Source: Ostreococcus lucimarinus
Lineage: Eukaryota
DNA: 64,000 nucleotides
Assembly: GCA_000092065.1 (NCBI GenBank)
Contig: CP000595.1
Strand: one strand, 5' to 3'
The notes under the pieces were generated by a model. The model was not told the origin of the DNA. It worked only from the letters and a program-made list of their open reading frames with translations, and made no database searches. Position 1 is the stretch's first letter. Each line of letters starts with the position of its first letter. Of this stretch, positions 10,330 through 16,388 are shown one piece after another. The position numbers were made by a program, and so were the translations under genes.

Positions 10330-10406
10330 CCCGCGGTGTGACGATTACACGCCGCACTCGCCGACGCGCGACGACGCGCGACGACGCGCGTGCCGGCGTT
10401 CTCGAG

Positions 10407-11456
10407 ATGCCGGAAGACGCCGCGACAACCGACGCCGTCGCGCGCGCCACCGCGACGCTCGGCGACGCGCGCGCGCCGACGCCCGCGCGCTTCTCCGCGC
10501 TCTTCCAGCTCCGCGCGCTCGCGACGCCCGACGCCGTCGACGCGCTCGTCGAGCGGCTGCGCGCGTCGCGCTCGGATTCGGCGCTCGTGCGGCACGAGTG
10601 CGCGTTCGCGCTGGGGCAGATGCGCGCGCGACGCGCGATCGACGCGCTGATGGAGACGCTGCGGGACGGCGACGACGACGGGATGGTTCGACACGAGTGC
10701 GCCGAGGCGCTGGGCGCGATCGCGAGCGACGATGGACGATGCGCGACGGCGCTGAGGGAAGCGGCGGGGGATGCGCGCCGGGAGGTGGCGGAGACGGCGG
10801 CGCTGGCGCTGAGGAAACTGGAGATGTGCGGCGCGGGGGGCGCGAGGGACACGGGGAGCGCGACGGGGAGCGCGAAGGAACGCGCGAGTCGACGACGCGA
10901 CGACGGAGGGACGACGGGGGGGGCAGAGGAGGGTAAAACGGAGACGACGTGTTTGAGCGTCGATCCGATCCCGGCGATGCCGACGGAGACGCCGTTCGAG
11001 CGATTGAAGGCGGTGGTTTTGGACGACGCGCACGAAATGTGGGAGCGGTACGCGGCGATGTTCGCGTTGCGGAATAAATCGTGCGCCGATCGAGAATCCA
11101 GCGACGCGTGCGCGGACGTCCTGGGCGAGGTTTTGAGCGCGAGCGGGAGCGCGCTGCTGAAGCACGAGGTGTGCTACGTGTTGGGGCAATTACAGAGCGC
11201 GAGCCCGGGGGCGCGAGACGCGTTGATTCGATGCCTCGAAGACTCGCGCGAGCACCCCATGGTGCGTCACGAAGCCGCCGAAGCGCTCGGATCGATCGCG
11301 CATCCGAGCACGCGAGGGTACCTCGAGTCGTTCGCGTCCGATCCCGAGCCCATCATCGCCGAATCGTGCGAAGTGGCGCTCGAAATCATGCGCCGAGAGC
11401 GCGAGGGCGAAATCGTCACCGCCGACGGCGCCGTCGTCGCCGTCAAACGCGACTGA
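10407..11456 (+). CDS. DOHH: Deoxyhypusine hydroxylase (DOHH).
   Basis: Four His-Glu HEAT-repeat motifs: VRHECAFALGQM, MVRHECAEALGAI, LKHEVCYVLGQL and MVRHEAAEALGSI. This is the di-iron HE-motif architecture diagnostic of DOHH. Confidence 0.85.
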   Translation: MPEDAATTDAVARATATLGDARAPTPARFSALFQLRALATPDAVDALVERLRASRSDSALVRHECAFALGQMRARRAIDALMETLRDGDDDGMVRHECAEALGAIASDDGRCATALREAAGDARREVAETAALALRKLEMCGAGGARDTGSATGSAKERASRRRDDGGTTGGAEEGKTETTCLSVDPIPAMPTETPFERLKAVVLDDAHEMWERYAAMFALRNKSCADRESSDACADVLGEVLSASGSALLKHEVCYVLGQLQSASPGARDALIRCLEDSREHPMVRHEAAEALGSIAHPSTRGYLESFASDPEPIIAESCEVALEIMRREREGEIVTADGAVVAVKRD

Positions 11457-11623: not shown

Positions 11624-11992
11624 ATGACCGCCAACCTCGCCTCCCGTCCCCTCGCCCGCCTCCCGCCCGAGGTCAACCGCACGCTGTACGTCCGTAACCT
11701 CCCCTTCAACGTCAGCAGCGAGGACATGCACGAGATATTCGGTAAATACGGCGCCCTGCGACAGATTCGCCTCGGGACGACCAAGGCGACCAAGGGCACC
11801 GCCTACGTCGTCTACGAGGACATCCACGACGCCAAGCAGGCGTGCGAGCACCTCAGCGGATTCAACGTCGCGAACCGCTACCTGATCGTGCTGTATCACC
11901 AGAGCGGAAAGGCGACGCAGAGCGTCGAGCGACGCGCGGCGGAGACGGCGCGTCTGCAGCGCGAGCACGGCGTCTCGGGAACGCAAACCTGA
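11624..11992 (+). CDS. SF3B6: Splicing factor 3B subunit 6 (SF3b14a/p14), an RRM protein.
   Basis: MTANLASRPLARLPPEVNRTLYVRNLPFNVSSEDMHEIFGKYGALRQIRLGTTKATKGTAYVVYEDIHDAKQACEHLSGFNVANRYLIVLYHQ is near-identical in pattern to p14 (RLPPEVNRILYIRNLP...GTAYVVYEDIFDAK...LSGFNV.NRYLVVLYY). Confidence 0.85.
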   Translation: MTANLASRPLARLPPEVNRTLYVRNLPFNVSSEDMHEIFGKYGALRQIRLGTTKATKGTAYVVYEDIHDAKQACEHLSGFNVANRYLIVLYHQSGKATQSVERRAAETARLQREHGVSGTQT

Positions 11993-12407
11993 CGCTCGAC
12001 GCCCGCGAGCGCGATATTTTAGCGCGTGTAACGATAGTGATTAGCGTACTAGTGCCGAACGCGGCGCCGCGGACGCGGTCGGATTCATCGCGTCGCGTCG
12101 CGTCGCCGTCGTCGCCACTCGTCGCCTCGCGCGACGCGAATGCGCTCGAGCGCGCGACCGTACGTCGCGGGTGCGCTCATTTTGTGGGCCGTCGCGCTGC
12201 AGGCGCACGTGTGGAGCATCCCGGACGCGGAGTTGAGGCGATTGCGCGGAGATTCGCGCGTGTCTTTCGTCCCCAGCGCGCGCGGGGTGCATGCGCGCGG
12301 GGCGAGGCGCGACGGCGACGACGACGACGACGCGAGCGCGCGGCGACGCGATTAAAGCGAAACGCTCGAAGGTCGCGCGAACGACGCGCGCAAACGCGCG
12401 GCGAGTC

Positions 12408-14894
12408 ATGGCGGGAGAGGCGGCGGCGATCGACGTGACGACGCTGCTGTCGACGTGCGTCGACGCGGCGGGACGCGGGTGCGCGGAGATACGGCGAGTG
12501 CAAAAAGCGCGCGATGAAGCGGCGAGCGACGATGAGAGCGCGTTCGTGGTGACGAGAAAAGTGGCGAGCGATCCGCGGTCGGCGCTGACGGAGGCGGACG
12601 TGGCGGCGCAGAGCGCGATCGTGAGCGCGTTGAGGGCGCGGTGGCCGACGGTGAAAATCGTGGGCGAGGAGGACGAAAACGACGACGCGGCGCCGATGAG
12701 CCCGAAGCGAGGGGCGCCGCTACGCGAGGATTTGTGTGCGGCGATTGAAACGTGCGATGACGCGCGATTGCGGACGATGCGGGTGAAAAGCGAGGACGTG
12801 ACGGTGTTCATCGATCCCGTGGACGGGACGCGAGAATTCGTCGAGTCGCGTCTGCGCGCGGTGCAGTGCTTGATCGGAATCGCCGTGCGCGGACGCGCGG
12901 TGGCGGGTGCGATCGGGTTGCCGTTTCCTGATGGTGACGTCGCGTCGTCGGAGGCGTGCGTGGTGTACGGCGCGGTGGCGCCGGGGGCGAAGCGCGGCGC
13001 CGTGGGCGCGCACGGCGAGCGCGGCGCCGCTCTCGAGATACGATTCGACGCAGAGAACGCGCAGGTGCGCTCGGTGACGGGAGATTCCAAAAATGCGGCG
13101 TTAATCGCGGCGAAAGAGATTTTGCGAGAGACGGCGACGAAAAGCGGGGCGACGTACGCGCACGGCTCGATCGGCGGCGCCGGGAATAAATTGCTCGCCG
13201 TCGCGGAAGGTCGCGCCGAGTACGCTTTGATGCACTTCGGGACGTCGCTGTGGGACACGTGCGCACCCGAAGCGATCGTTCGCGCGTGCGGGGGGAAAGT
13301 GACGGATTTATACGGCGCGCCGCTGATGCATTACGAAGACTCGCCGGGGGGGTTGGTGAACCAACTCGGCGTCGTCGGTTCGTCCGCCGCGTGCGAAGGC
13401 GCGATTTCGCACGACGCCGTGTGCTCGGAGATGCGTGGAAACGAAGACTTGAAGAAGATGCTGAATCGCTTCACGGGTGGTGATAGCTCGCTCGCATTCG
13501 GCGGCGATGAAATTCAGGCGAGCGACGTCGCGCGGTGTTTGGGCGGCGGACCGTTGTCGGCGCGAGACGTCGGCGACCGCGTCGCGCGCGCCGTCGGCGC
13601 CGAAGGCGACGTCTCGCTTTCCGGATACTCCGCCCCCGAGCGCGACGCCGTGCGCGGTTTGATGAGCGATGCGTGTCGTATCTATTTCAAATGGTCCACA
13701 GACGACGACGGTCGTCTGCCCCGGTCGGCGTTCTACAAAAAAGTCGACATGGGCAATCTCGAATACATGCGCACCAAGCAAGTCACGCAACCGCTCAAAA
13801 TTGCGCGCGACAGTAAATCGTACGCCGTCGAGGCGTCGTTTCTCGCCTCGGACGCGTGTAAGGCGCTCGAAGAAGCGGGCATCGGCGTACCGATATGCTA
13901 CGCCGCCGACTTGCGACCGGTGCACGACGACCCGATCGAGAGCAAGTTTTCCCTCTTGCTCGAAGACTTTCACCCGAGCGACGGTTGGGAACAGGCGAAG
14001 ATGCTTCGACCGGATCAAGCCAAATGCGCGCTCAGAGCGCTCGCGCGCATGCACGCGTTCTTCCTTCCGGGAAGTCGCTTCCGAAAGTCATCGAAAGCCG
14101 CGAATGAGGATCTTCTCGCCACGGTTTGGAGCTCGGGCGGATATTGGCAACCGAACATGCAACCGGACGATCAGATGGACGTCGTGGCGAGCGCGTGGGA
14201 GCAGCATATGTCCAGCTTCGGCGCCGCGATTGAGGCCGAGCCGACGATCGACATCGCCGTGGCGCGAACCGTCGGTGCGAGATTACAGTCGCACGCGCGT
14301 CGAATAGGCGCGGAGACGCACCCGTTTTCGGGATGTCCGGGCGCCGACGACGCGTTGCGACACGGCGGCGAGAGACTGGCGGCGCTGCAAACCGTCATCC
14401 ACGGTGATCCGAAATCGGGTAACATTTTTGAGCGACGCGCGGGGGAGTCCGACGAATGGGAAATCGGTCTGATCGATTTCCAATGGACCGGGATCGGGCT
14501 CGGCGGTACGGATGTCGGGCATTTTATGTGCGCGTCCGTGGCGCCGGAGGGGCTGAGCGCCGACGGCGCCGCGGAAAACGCACTCGTCGACGTGTACTAC
14601 GACGCGTTTTGTGAAGCCGCGGCGGAATTCGGCGCGGTGTCGAGTAAAGAAAACGCTGGCGAAGAGTTGCTCACGCGAGAAGAGTTACAAGTGCAGTATG
14701 AAAACGGAGTATTGGATACGATGCGATGCGTGTTTGGCTACCAGTGGCTTCGCGTCAAGGCGTCGCCCGAGTCGCTCGCGAAGAACGCACAGTCCATAGG
14801 GCGCAACAGTTACAACAAGTCGCTCCCGAACGCGTTGTGGATGATTCGCACTGCGGATTTGTATCTCAAGGCGCGCGAAGCGAGAGCGCATTAA
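12408..14894 (+). CDS. Two-domain fusion protein. The N-terminal domain is inositol-monophosphatase / 3'(2'),5'-bisphosphate-nucleotidase (PAP phosphatase) family. The C-terminal domain is an aminoglycoside-phosphotransferase / choline-kinase / EcKinase-like small-molecule kinase.
   Basis: The phosphatase part carries metal-site motifs IVGEEDE, DPVDGTREF and WDTCAPEAIV (DPIDGT / WD-x-AAG family). The kinase part has a Brenner-type catalytic loop IHGDPKSGNIF and a DFG-equivalent LIDFQWTG. It is one continuous ORF of 829 aa from the ATG at 12408. Confidence 0.7.
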   Translation: MAGEAAAIDVTTLLSTCVDAAGRGCAEIRRVQKARDEAASDDESAFVVTRKVASDPRSALTEADVAAQSAIVSALRARWPTVKIVGEEDENDDAAPMSPKRGAPLREDLCAAIETCDDARLRTMRVKSEDVTVFIDPVDGTREFVESRLRAVQCLIGIAVRGRAVAGAIGLPFPDGDVASSEACVVYGAVAPGAKRGAVGAHGERGAALEIRFDAENAQVRSVTGDSKNAALIAAKEILRETATKSGATYAHGSIGGAGNKLLAVAEGRAEYALMHFGTSLWDTCAPEAIVRACGGKVTDLYGAPLMHYEDSPGGLVNQLGVVGSSAACEGAISHDAVCSEMRGNEDLKKMLNRFTGGDSSLAFGGDEIQASDVARCLGGGPLSARDVGDRVARAVGAEGDVSLSGYSAPERDAVRGLMSDACRIYFKWSTDDDGRLPRSAFYKKVDMGNLEYMRTKQVTQPLKIARDSKSYAVEASFLASDACKALEEAGIGVPICYAADLRPVHDDPIESKFSLLLEDFHPSDGWEQAKMLRPDQAKCALRALARMHAFFLPGSRFRKSSKAANEDLLATVWSSGGYWQPNMQPDDQMDVVASAWEQHMSSFGAAIEAEPTIDIAVARTVGARLQSHARRIGAETHPFSGCPGADDALRHGGERLAALQTVIHGDPKSGNIFERRAGESDEWEIGLIDFQWTGIGLGGTDVGHFMCASVAPEGLSADGAAENALVDVYYDAFCEAAAEFGAVSSKENAGEELLTREELQVQYENGVLDTMRCVFGYQWLRVKASPESLAKNAQSIGRNSYNKSLPNALWMIRTADLYLKAREARAH

Positions 14895-14927: not shown

Positions 14928-16388
14928 TCACGCGCACACGCTCTTCTTCGATCGAAGCTCGACGGTGTATTTGTCTGGAATCGCGTCGCGCTCCATTTCT
15001 TTGACTTTACGCTCGCGAATTTGTTCAAGTAAAACGTGCGTTTGTCTTTCGCGCCGGCGCGCCTCTTCAGCCTCTTCAGCCGCGCGCGCCTCCGCCCGTC
15101 GTTTCGCCTCTTCGTTGGATTGCATTTGATGGATTAAATCGCGCTTGTGCGCCGCCGCTGCCTCGCGCCGCGCCTCCTCTCTCTGCCGCTCCGCCAGCAG
15201 CTGCGCCTCGTACTCTCGTTTCAAACGTTCGGCGTTTTCTTTTTCGTTCTCCTTCTCGATGCGCTGCAATCGCACCTTTTCTTCGTGCTGCGCCACGCGA
15301 GCGGCGGCTAAATCTTCAAGCATTTGGCGTCGCTTGGCGCGTTCGGCGCGTTCCTTCTCGCGCGTCTGTCTGTCGTACTCATCTTGCAGCTTTTGAGCGC
15401 GAATAAAGTCTTGCTCGGCGCGACCATCGATGTACTTTTCTTGCATCGAACGAAGACGCGCGGTCTCGAGTTCGCGCGCTCGGCGCTGCGCTTCCTCCTC
15501 GGCGGCTTTGGCGGCGTCGCGCTCGGCTTTCAATCGCAAGTACTCCATCACGCGTTCATCTTCCGCGCGTTCGGCGCGCTCGGCCTCGGCTTTGCGCTTG
15601 ATTTGTTCTTCGTTTTCAGCGTTTATCTCGTCCAGAAGTTTCAGCGCGGCCACGCGCTTGCGCTGCTTGTCCGCGGCGTCCTCTTCGAAGGCGCGCTCGA
15701 TGTCTTCGACGCGCTTGCGAGATTCCCGCTCGCGGCGTTCCTGCTCCATCGCGCGCGCGCGCTCGCGCTCCGCGATTTGCTCGCGCAGCGTATCTGCGCC
15801 GAGTTTCATCTCGAACCTACGCTCGCGTTCGCGACGTTCCATGCGCGCGATCGCGGCGACGCGATCGCGCTCCATCTCCTCGTCCAACCGTCGCCGCTCC
15901 GCCTCGGCGGCGATTCGCAGCGCGCGCTTCTCCTCCACCTGCGCGTCTCGCGACGTCATAACCTTGCCGTACAAAACCATAGAATTCATCTCGCGCACGT
16001 CCGCGAGATCATTCTCGAGCTCAGCCGCCGCGCGCGCTCGAGTCTCCCCATCCGTCTCCTCTCGCACGGTGCGCCTCGGCGCCGCCGCGTCGCCCTCCCG
16101 CGCGTCCTCCGCGCCCCGATTCGTCTCCGCCTTCCCTCGCGCGCGCGCAGCGTCCGCCGCGCGCATGCGCTCGCGCCGCGCGCGCTCGCGCGCCGCCGCC
16201 TCCGTCCCACCGTCGCCCGCGCCCGCGTCCGCGTCCGCGTCCGCGTCCGCGCGCGTCGCTTCGTCTCGCTCCTCCCCGCCGTCGTCCCACCGCCCGCGCG
16301 CGCGTCGCGCCATCGCGCGCGCCTCCTCGCGCGTCACGCGCGAAAACCCACCGCGCGCGCCCGCCGCCGCGCGGTGGGTCGTCGCCAT
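14928..16388 (-). CDS. Charged coiled-coil protein (ER/K-rich, trichohyalin-plectin-homology type; CFAP45/CCDC-like).
   Basis: A 486-aa ORF dominated by ERRERE, EEKR and AEAERA heptad-like repeats. The N-terminus encodes DADADADAGAG from a (CGCGTC)n microsatellite. Confidence 0.5.
   Translation of the reverse strand: MATTHRAAAGARGGFSRVTREEARAMARRARGRWDDGGEERDEATRADADADADAGAGDGGTEAAARERARRERMRAADAARARGKAETNRGAEDAREGDAAAPRRTVREETDGETRARAAAELENDLADVREMNSMVLYGKVMTSRDAQVEEKRALRIAAEAERRRLDEEMERDRVAAIARMERRERERRFEMKLGADTLREQIAERERARAMEQERRERESRKRVEDIERAFEEDAADKQRKRVAALKLLDEINAENEEQIKRKAEAERAERAEDERVMEYLRLKAERDAAKAAEEEAQRRARELETARLRSMQEKYIDGRAEQDFIRAQKLQDEYDRQTREKERAERAKRRQMLEDLAAARVAQHEEKVRLQRIEKENEKENAERLKREYEAQLLAERQREEARREAAAAHKRDLIHQMQSNEEAKRRAEARAAEEAEEARRRERQTHVLLEQIRERKVKEMERDAIPDKYTVELRSKKSVCA
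16215..16252. repeat. Hexanucleotide microsatellite (CGCGTC) of about 5 copies, inside the coiled-coil gene.
   Basis: Direct reading shows cgcgtccgcgtccgcgtccgcgtccgcg. Confidence 0.8.

Follow-up and report, generated by a model that had tools for sequence, protein, structure and literature searches.

Introduction

In PFK-2/FBPase-2 (6-phosphofructo-2-kinase/fructose-2,6-bisphosphatase) a kinase and a bisphosphate phosphatase form one bifunctional enzyme that sets the level of a single metabolite. In MJ0917 of Methanocaldococcus jannaschii an NADP phosphatase of the inositol monophosphatase (IMPase) family is fused to an NAD kinase, and the two activities oppose each other at the ribose 2'-phosphate of a molecule containing adenosine (PMC8553519). 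ACAD10 unites a HAD phosphatase, an APH-like kinase and an acyl-coenzyme A (acyl-CoA) dehydrogenase on one polypeptide that serves one lipid pathway (PMC13596139). Here we describe a fusion gene located in a 64,000-nucleotide stretch of Ostreococcus lucimarinus DNA (contig CP000595.1; this whole stretch is called the window below). Its product joins a phosphatase domain resembling BPNT1 to a small-molecule kinase module, and we consider which reaction or reactions the two halves might serve.

Results

The fusion protein is encoded by a single expressed gene

The gene is one uninterrupted open reading frame (ORF) on the plus strand, which encodes 867 aa from its first ATG (12291), ends with a TAA stop codon at 14892-14894 and is preceded by an in-frame stop at 12234. 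A second ATG at 12408, corresponding to Met40, gives a form of 828 aa, and residues are numbered by this shorter form throughout. The parts of the gene are as follows:

12291..14894, plus strand: complete coding sequence (supported by the ORF list, the upstream stop, the transcript-derived protein P0122 and an independent 828-aa gene call, P0001 on L009)
12291..12407, plus strand: optional 39-aa N-terminal extension, MRAGRGATATTTTTRARGDAIKAKRSKVARTTRANARRV (nine R, nine A, eight T, one acidic residue)
12426..13397, plus strand: BPNT1-like Mg2+-dependent phosphatase domain, aa 7-330 (Pfam, solved relatives, Foldseek, invariant residues)
13398..13502, plus strand: helical connector, aa 331-365 (secondary structure and blocks of model confidence)
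13503..14891, plus strand: small-molecule kinase module, aa 366-828

Since the stretch occupied by the gene has about 66% G+C and its other frames hold many long spurious ORFs, the length of an ORF is by itself no proof of a gene here. The ORF is matched by 178 database proteins, and most of the best 120 span 97-100% of the query. One protein, P0122, was found inside the 90%-identity cluster of the fusion protein and is an ORF of the MMETSP transcriptome labelled 'type:complete'; it has 867 aa, 864 of them identical to our translation, with no gaps, and thereby includes the upstream ATG in the mRNA. Because this transcript-derived protein is 99.7% identical and ungapped, the gene contains no intron and is transcribed as a single mRNA. 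The 828-aa gene was also called on an independent assembly, with identical neighbours. The gene is real, expressed and intron-free; an artefact, a chance ORF and a hidden intron were each considered and are ruled out by the full-length homologs, the independent gene call and the transcript protein. The continuity of the frame near 13.3-13.6 kb is likewise genuine, as the connector contains invariant and near-invariant residues, H335 and R343 being among the latter.

The original prediction, drawn from the nucleotide letters, had placed an IMPase/bisphosphate-nucleotidase domain and a kinase resembling APH, choline kinase or EcKL on one chain. Pfam, the alignment and the transcript bear this out: both sets of catalytic motifs are intact, and the five that it quoted (GEEDE, DPVDGT, WDTCAP, IHGDPKSGNIF and LIDFQ) all lie where it had located them. 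The possibility that two genes had been misread as one near 13.3 kb falls with the ungapped transcript protein.

The N-terminal extension may be an organelle-targeting peptide of the longer isoform, to judge from its R/A/T-rich composition. In the homologs P0008, P0010 and P0014 an internal Met likewise follows a basic stretch rich in S, T and A. Alternative starts may thus yield two isoforms, one targeted to an organelle and one cytosolic.

The N-terminal half is a BPNT1-like phosphatase domain

The Inositol_P family (PF00459) was recognized by Pfam at aa 28-308 with 112.7 bits (cutoff 27; 2.8e-32). The following motifs were located in this half:

12663-12677, plus strand: GEEDE metal-site motif
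12813-12830, plus strand: DPVDGT metal-site motif
13077-13094, plus strand: TGDSKN, at the place where BPNT1 has TRSHSN
13173-13190, plus strand: GGAGNK with the conserved lysine
13251-13295, plus strand: WD-x11-GG metal-site motif, WDTCAP(x)GG

The signature that we take as characteristic of the superfamily is D-Xn-EE-Xn-DP(I/L/V)D(S/G/A)T-Xn-WD-X11-GG. It is present in full in the fusion protein, together with the GGAGNK lysine, and the residues T61, D64, E87, E88, D136, P137, D139, T141, K261, W282, D283, G295 and G296 are invariant in 60 full-length homologs. Among solved structures the best matches of the N-terminal half were human and rat BPNT1 (100 and 99 bits; 1e-27), followed by the PAP (3'-phosphoadenosine 5'-phosphate) phosphatase of Entamoeba (60 bits), while IMPases, SuhB, CysQ, INPP1 and Hal2p scored 28 bits or less each. 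A Foldseek comparison of the full-length model agreed with this, giving a probability of 1.0 and TM(target) 0.75 against 2wef/1jp4, and a probability of 1.0 with TM(target) 0.70-0.75 over BPNT1, SuhB, IMPA2 and CysQ; the fold is the five-layer alpha/beta sandwich. Metal-dependent hydrolysis of a phosphomonoester by this domain is thus well supported by the conserved residues and the fold.

The nature of the substrate is a separate question. We take Thr195, His198 and Lys224 of rat BPNT1 to be nucleotide-binding residues, with His198 presumably a ligand of the nucleotide 5'-phosphate. Lys224 corresponds to the invariant K261 and Thr195 to T224 (T or S in the family), with a register uncertain by about one residue in this gapped region. 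His198 falls at S227 in the TGDSxN motif, where, within the same uncertainty, the fusion family has no conserved His. PAP is therefore a plausible but not a secure substrate of the domain.

The C-terminal half is a divergent small-molecule kinase

The second half has a bilobal kinase fold with a beta3 Lys, an alphaC Glu, an HxDxxxxN catalytic loop and a metal-binding Asp. The motifs of this module are:

within 13503-13556, plus strand: kinase lead-in QAxDVARxLxGxPL, aa 371-383
13653-13667, plus strand: N-lobe loop RGLMS
13731-13742, plus strand: ATP lysine K444 in FYKK
within 13797-13835, plus strand: alphaC glutamate E475
14397-14429, plus strand: catalytic loop IHGDPKSGNIF
14469-14486, plus strand: metal-binding LIDFQW
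14802-14822, plus strand: family-specific RNSYNKS

The lead-in is assigned to the kinase since it is kept in kinase-only relatives. EcKL (PF02958) was the best Pfam family, with 27.5 bits (cutoff 22; 2.5e-6) at aa 659-737, a match covering only profile positions 213-288 of 294 (76/294); relatives of the protein reach about 50-71 bits with longer coverage of the profile. APH (PF01636, clan PKinase) scored 23.0 bits in the window protein, just under its cutoff of 23.2, which is passed by the relatives P0097 (54.3 bits) and P0226 (39.6 bits). Identity of the window kinase to any solved kinase is 9-16%, and a profile built from the kinase alone found the kinase domain of ACAD11 as its best solved match (E 4.4e-4, 22 bits, about 50 residues). 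Within the EcKL/APH/choline-kinase fold the kinase represents a small branch of its own. We favour a catalytically competent, ATP-dependent O-kinase acting on a small molecule, as the intact motif set would predict; steroid substrates in the host protists would be speculative.

The two domains are predicted to pack together

The AlphaFold model of the full-length protein has a mean predicted local distance difference test (pLDDT) score of 92.6 and a predicted template modelling (pTM) score of 0.90. Confidence is low only in a loop of the phosphatase domain (aa 41-60, pLDDT 48-68), with part of the connector at 66-79. Since the pTM of 0.90 was reached for a chain of 330 + 460 residues, the interface between the domains appears to be confidently placed, and this value, taken by itself, suggests a rigid packing of the two domains.

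The fusion is probably ancestral in a family of marine protists

More than 170 proteins carry the full-length fusion, and their sources are prasinophytes, haptophytes, diatoms, bolidophytes, Diplonema and Amoebophrya (named carriers include Cymbomonas, Prymnesium, Cylindrotheca, Nitzschia, Pseudo-nitzschia, Thalassiosira, Skeletonema and Bolidomonas). Because Diplonema papillatum, a heterotroph, and Amoebophrya, a parasite, carry it too, the family is one of marine protists and is not specific to photosynthesis. No relatives were found in the viral contigs searched.

A HMMER scan of 1.84 billion representative sequences with the kinase domain alone detected 601 proteins at E ≤ 1e-3, 246 at 1e-10 and 114 at 1e-30. 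Most full-length members of the kinase family are fused, and the family is found almost only in this fusion, although genuine kinase-only genes exist as well. Of the 197 proteins retrieved with a length of 700 aa or more, 174 matched strict patterns of all five core motifs. Purifying selection on both catalytic centres is strong.

The kinase-only forms deserve attention. P0178 is a genuine gene of this kind, with a MatE gene in divergent orientation 225 bp ahead of it, and kinase-only paralogs are widespread in diatoms, where they occur beside the fused gene in one species (e.g., Thalassiosira sp. AJA248-18 and Cylindrotheca closterium). Seven of the diatom paralogs (P0190, P0332, P0334, P0335, P0342, P0356 and P0377) are about 450-540 aa long and carry an N-terminal extension of about 100 aa, which in P0190 opens with a hydrophobic stretch resembling a signal peptide. 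The diatom paralog may thus reside in another compartment than the fused enzyme. Five apparent stand-alone kinases (P0182, P0184, P0186, P0321 and P0322) proved to be fragments of fused genes and were set aside.

In a rough tree of the kinase domains (a quick neighbour-joining distance tree) the kinase-only forms nest within the fused clades; for this reason the fusion is probably ancestral and the loss of the phosphatase secondary. The fused clade also includes a subclade (P0212, P0215 and P0218) in which EE, DPxDGT, GGAGNK and WD are lost, while the fold of the N-terminal domain, including the fold-end motif A-x-x-A-x-x-x-A-x-GG-x-VT, is kept and the kinase is fully intact. As both the kinase-only paralogs and this dead-phosphatase subclade nest in the fused clade, the kinase is the constant element of the family.

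Matches of unusual length were all Inositol_P plus EcKL or fragments of that arrangement. No fusion partner other than Inositol_P was seen, except in P0195, a single metagenomic ORF (L013, 81-2294). Here a His_Phos_1 domain (3e-30) is joined to a kinase of the same family, in one cluster from one contig. We treat it as a lead only: it might mean that the phosphatase partner has been exchanged for a non-homologous one.

Genomic neighbourhood and distant bacterial relatives

Upstream of the fusion gene are a HEAT-repeat protein (10338-11456, plus strand) with repeated His-Glu motifs, which we take to resemble deoxyhypusine hydroxylase, and a small RRM protein (11639-11992, plus strand), presumably SF3b14/p14-like; the order is the same in the independent assembly. 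A gene on the minus strand (14928-16388) runs towards the fusion gene, and only 33 bp separate their stop codons. It encodes a coiled-coil protein of 486 aa, rich in E and R, that contains a trichohyalin-plectin-homology (TPH) domain (1e-55). Gene packing at the 3' end of the fusion gene is extremely tight.

Two antisense ORFs overlap the fusion gene (12041-13258, 405 aa, and 13308-14054, 248 aa, both on the minus strand). Their translations are of low complexity, rich in R, A and S and typical for GC-rich DNA, and they are almost certainly not genes. Over the window the G+C content is 0.54-0.71 per 2-kb interval, low at about 4-6, 30-32 and 54-56 kb and high at 0-2 and 10-12 kb.

Eight distant prokaryotic loci were found, with proteins 23-35% identical over parts of their length. 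In Pseudoalteromonas (L001, 5404-9619; L003, 5365-9583) the kinase, which is the nearest prokaryotic relative (24% identity), lies 135 bp downstream of a 771-aa FadE-type acyl-CoA dehydrogenase, with an EamA transporter on its other side. In Desulfobulbales (L006, 5965-8504; L008, 4454-7013) the kinase gene overlaps, and is translationally coupled to, one for a Pyr_redox_2 pyridine-nucleotide disulfide oxidoreductase. We considered these operon contexts as a clue to the substrate and dropped them: since the contexts conflict and identity is only 23-35% over parts of the proteins, no function can be transferred from the bacterial loci.

Discussion

We lean towards reading the fusion protein as a bifunctional kinase/bisphosphate phosphatase that serves one phosphorylated metabolite, probably nucleotide- or sugar-like. 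The N-terminal half would be a catalytically competent, Mg2+-dependent phosphomonoesterase of the lithium-sensitive IMPase superfamily. The kinase would act on a hydroxyl group in a metabolite that is already phosphorylated and probably resembles ribose, a nucleotide or a cyclitol; from the resulting or a related bisphosphate, a phosphate would be removed by the BPNT1-like domain. Two variants can be envisaged. The halves may oppose each other and thereby set the metabolite level, in the manner of PFK-2/FBPase-2 and MJ0917, or they may act in sequence, with the kinase making a bisphosphate that the phosphatase trims. In either variant the kinase would be the core activity and the phosphatase the accessory one.

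We infer that the two activities serve one metabolite pool. Such a couple is favoured because both catalytic centres are conserved and the kinase, the invariable part of the family, recurs with no partner but the BPNT1-like domain. Characterised enzymes of the BPNT1 type act on bisphosphates (PAP, Ins(1,4)P2), not on monophosphates, and enzyme fusions usually join steps on one metabolite, which are further reasons to prefer it. A coupled phosphorylation/dephosphorylation module had been proposed in the original prediction. Conservation of the fusion and the rigid two-domain model fit this proposal, but the coupling is not obligatory, given the kinase-only and dead-phosphatase relatives, and the module itself can only be inferred.

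Several observations weigh against the idea of a kinase/bisphosphate-phosphatase couple. No substrate could be assigned to either domain from sequence, structural neighbours or prokaryotic gene context. The protein stayed far below the cutoffs of the NCBIfam equivalog models (TIGR01331 CysQ, 62.8 against 228.8 bits; TIGR01330 HAL2, 28.2 against 267 bits) in a library that contains no BPNT1-specific model. PAP is perhaps not the substrate, because TRSHSN of BPNT1, with its His198, is TGDSxN in the fusion family. The existence of kinase-only genes and of the dead-phosphatase subclade indicates that the kinase is able to work without a linked phosphatase. The mutual placement of the two active sites is not fixed by the confidence figures of the model, and P0195, as a single cluster from one contig, is possibly an assembly artefact.

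The main rival, which we regard as unlikely but well worth keeping in view, holds that the N-terminal domain is the BPNT1-type PAP phosphatase of the cell, while the kinase acts on a separate acceptor (for example a sterol, a xenobiotic or an osmolyte alcohol) and the fusion ensures co-expression only. PAP would come from sulfotransferases and phosphopantetheinyl transferases, and the two activities, though directed at different molecules, would share one pathway, concerned with conjugation or related to sulfur. BPNT1 is indeed the closest characterised relative, with the metal site and the GGAGNK lysine invariant, and every named host is a marine protist living in a sulfate-rich medium. Members of EcKL are predicted to phosphorylate secondary alcohols (bioRxiv 10.1101/2020.02.17.951962), and the kinase-only paralogs imply that the kinase works independently. 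Against these points, the position equivalent to His198 of BPNT1 appears not to be conserved, and mere co-expression would not be expected to produce a rigid conserved interface (pTM 0.90) or to preserve the fold of a dead N-terminal domain. Nor was any link to a sulfotransferase found, and the main survey of gene fusions in sulfate assimilation, from which the words 'phosphatase' and 'nucleotidase' are absent, mentions no such protein.

A nucleotide phosphate-relocation or signalling module is a distinctly improbable, if attractive, proposal. For relocation, the kinase would convert a nucleoside 3'-monophosphate (3'-NMP) into the 3',5'-bisphosphate (pNp), which the BPNT1-like domain would convert into the 5'-monophosphate (5'-NMP); this would be the mononucleotide counterpart of polynucleotide kinase/3'-phosphatase. 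For signalling, the pair would make and destroy a regulator used by marine protists, either PAP or a different adenosine compound with a 3'-phosphate. Either, if true, would account for the fusion of a bisphosphate-requiring type of phosphatase to a kinase.

Still less probable is an enzyme of CoA esters, whose kinase would act on a hydroxyl of an acyl-CoA, as in ACAD10/11 and LvaA, and whose BPNT1-like domain would either recognise the 3'-phosphate in the 3'-phospho-ADP moiety of CoA or cleave it off. CoA contains a PAP substructure, which counts in favour of this scheme. The ACAD11 kinase, the best solved match of the kinase-only profile (E 4.4e-4), shares the unusual lysine of HGDxKxxN, the Pseudoalteromonas relative lies next to the FadE-type dehydrogenase, and the ACAD10/11 kinases require the CoA moiety to recognise their substrate (PMC12440821). 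The protein nevertheless does not belong to the ACAD10/11/LvaA group: the similarity extends over about 50 residues, no family member has an ACAD domain, and adjacency to an ACAD gene is limited to Pseudoalteromonas.

Least probable of all is a mainly non-catalytic N-terminal domain that binds a ligand or serves as a scaffold (a PAP-like nucleotide sensor or dimerisation platform of the kinase) with secondary phosphatase chemistry: the subclade without EE, DPxDGT, GGAGNK and WD keeps the fold and an intact kinase, and the domains are predicted to pack rigidly, but the metal-binding residues are strictly conserved in the window protein, in every one of the 60 homologs aligned and in some 174 of the 197 long ones, which argues for selection for catalysis. 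That subclade does indicate that the domain can take a non-catalytic role too; since the metal-site residues are strictly conserved elsewhere in the family, catalysis should matter in the window protein.

Returning to the kinase/bisphosphate-phosphatase couple, we see in the fusion a promising candidate for a metabolic step not yet discovered, not for a new kind of biology. It is conserved in dominant marine primary producers (diatoms, haptophytes and prasinophytes) as well as in heterotrophic and parasitic marine protists. Identification of the substrate would probably expose an undescribed metabolite or a salvage or regulatory step, possibly in sulfur/PAP or nucleotide turnover. Natural variants (the active fusion, the dead-phosphatase fusion and the kinase-only paralog) provide ready controls.

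The original prediction did not recognise the architecture as a described enzyme. In the full-text literature searched we found no description of a BPNT1-like domain combined with an EcKL/APH-like kinase, so that in this respect the statement holds; public databases, on the other hand, already contain the architecture in entries from many algae. Their names are automatic only ('3'(2'),5'-bisphosphate nucleotidase', 'PAPS 3'-phosphatase/thiamine kinase-like enzyme'), and the label 'bisphosphate nucleotidase' overlooks more than half of the protein.

Comparison with known systems

BPNT1 (3'(2'),5'-bisphosphate nucleotidase 1, a PAP phosphatase of EC 3.1.3.7; PDB 2wef, 1jp4) takes one phosphate off small molecules that bear two. 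It shares with the N-terminal half its fold, the complete metal-binding signature, the long insertion between EE and DPxDGT and the GGAGNK lysine. It differs in sequence (about 25% identity), in having TRSHSN instead of TGDSxN and in being a stand-alone protein of 308 aa, whereas the domain described here is fused to a kinase. Unlike EcKL, APH and choline kinases, the kinase family has the motifs RGLMS, YWQP and NSYNK and is small and restricted to protists. A Lys is near-universal in its catalytic loop (HGDxKxxN), a position at which insect EcKLs presumably have Trp.

ACAD10 resembles the fusion protein in carrying a phosphatase and an APH-like kinase on one chain, and ACAD11 in its HGDxKxxN loop; ACAD10 differs by its HAD-type phosphatase, an ACAD domain is present, and the similarity is confined to the catalytic loop (22 bits). 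PFK-2/FBPase-2 follows the same logic of kinase plus phosphatase, and the P0195 variant shares its phosphatase superfamily (His_Phos_1), but its folds are those of a P-loop kinase and a histidine phosphatase, with no sequence relation to the window protein. The nearest precedent in logic is MJ0917, with an IMPase-family phosphatase and a kinase on one chain. This protein is archaeal, combines an NAD-kinase fold with a phosphatase of the archaeal IMPase/FBPase type, and is homologous only at the level of the phosphatase superfamily. The likeness to PFK-2/FBPase-2 and MJ0917 is best seen as functional analogy, not membership, since the domain families differ and only the architecture is analogous. 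Both superfamilies and bifunctional kinase/phosphatase enzymes as such are known; what appears new is the combination of these two domains.

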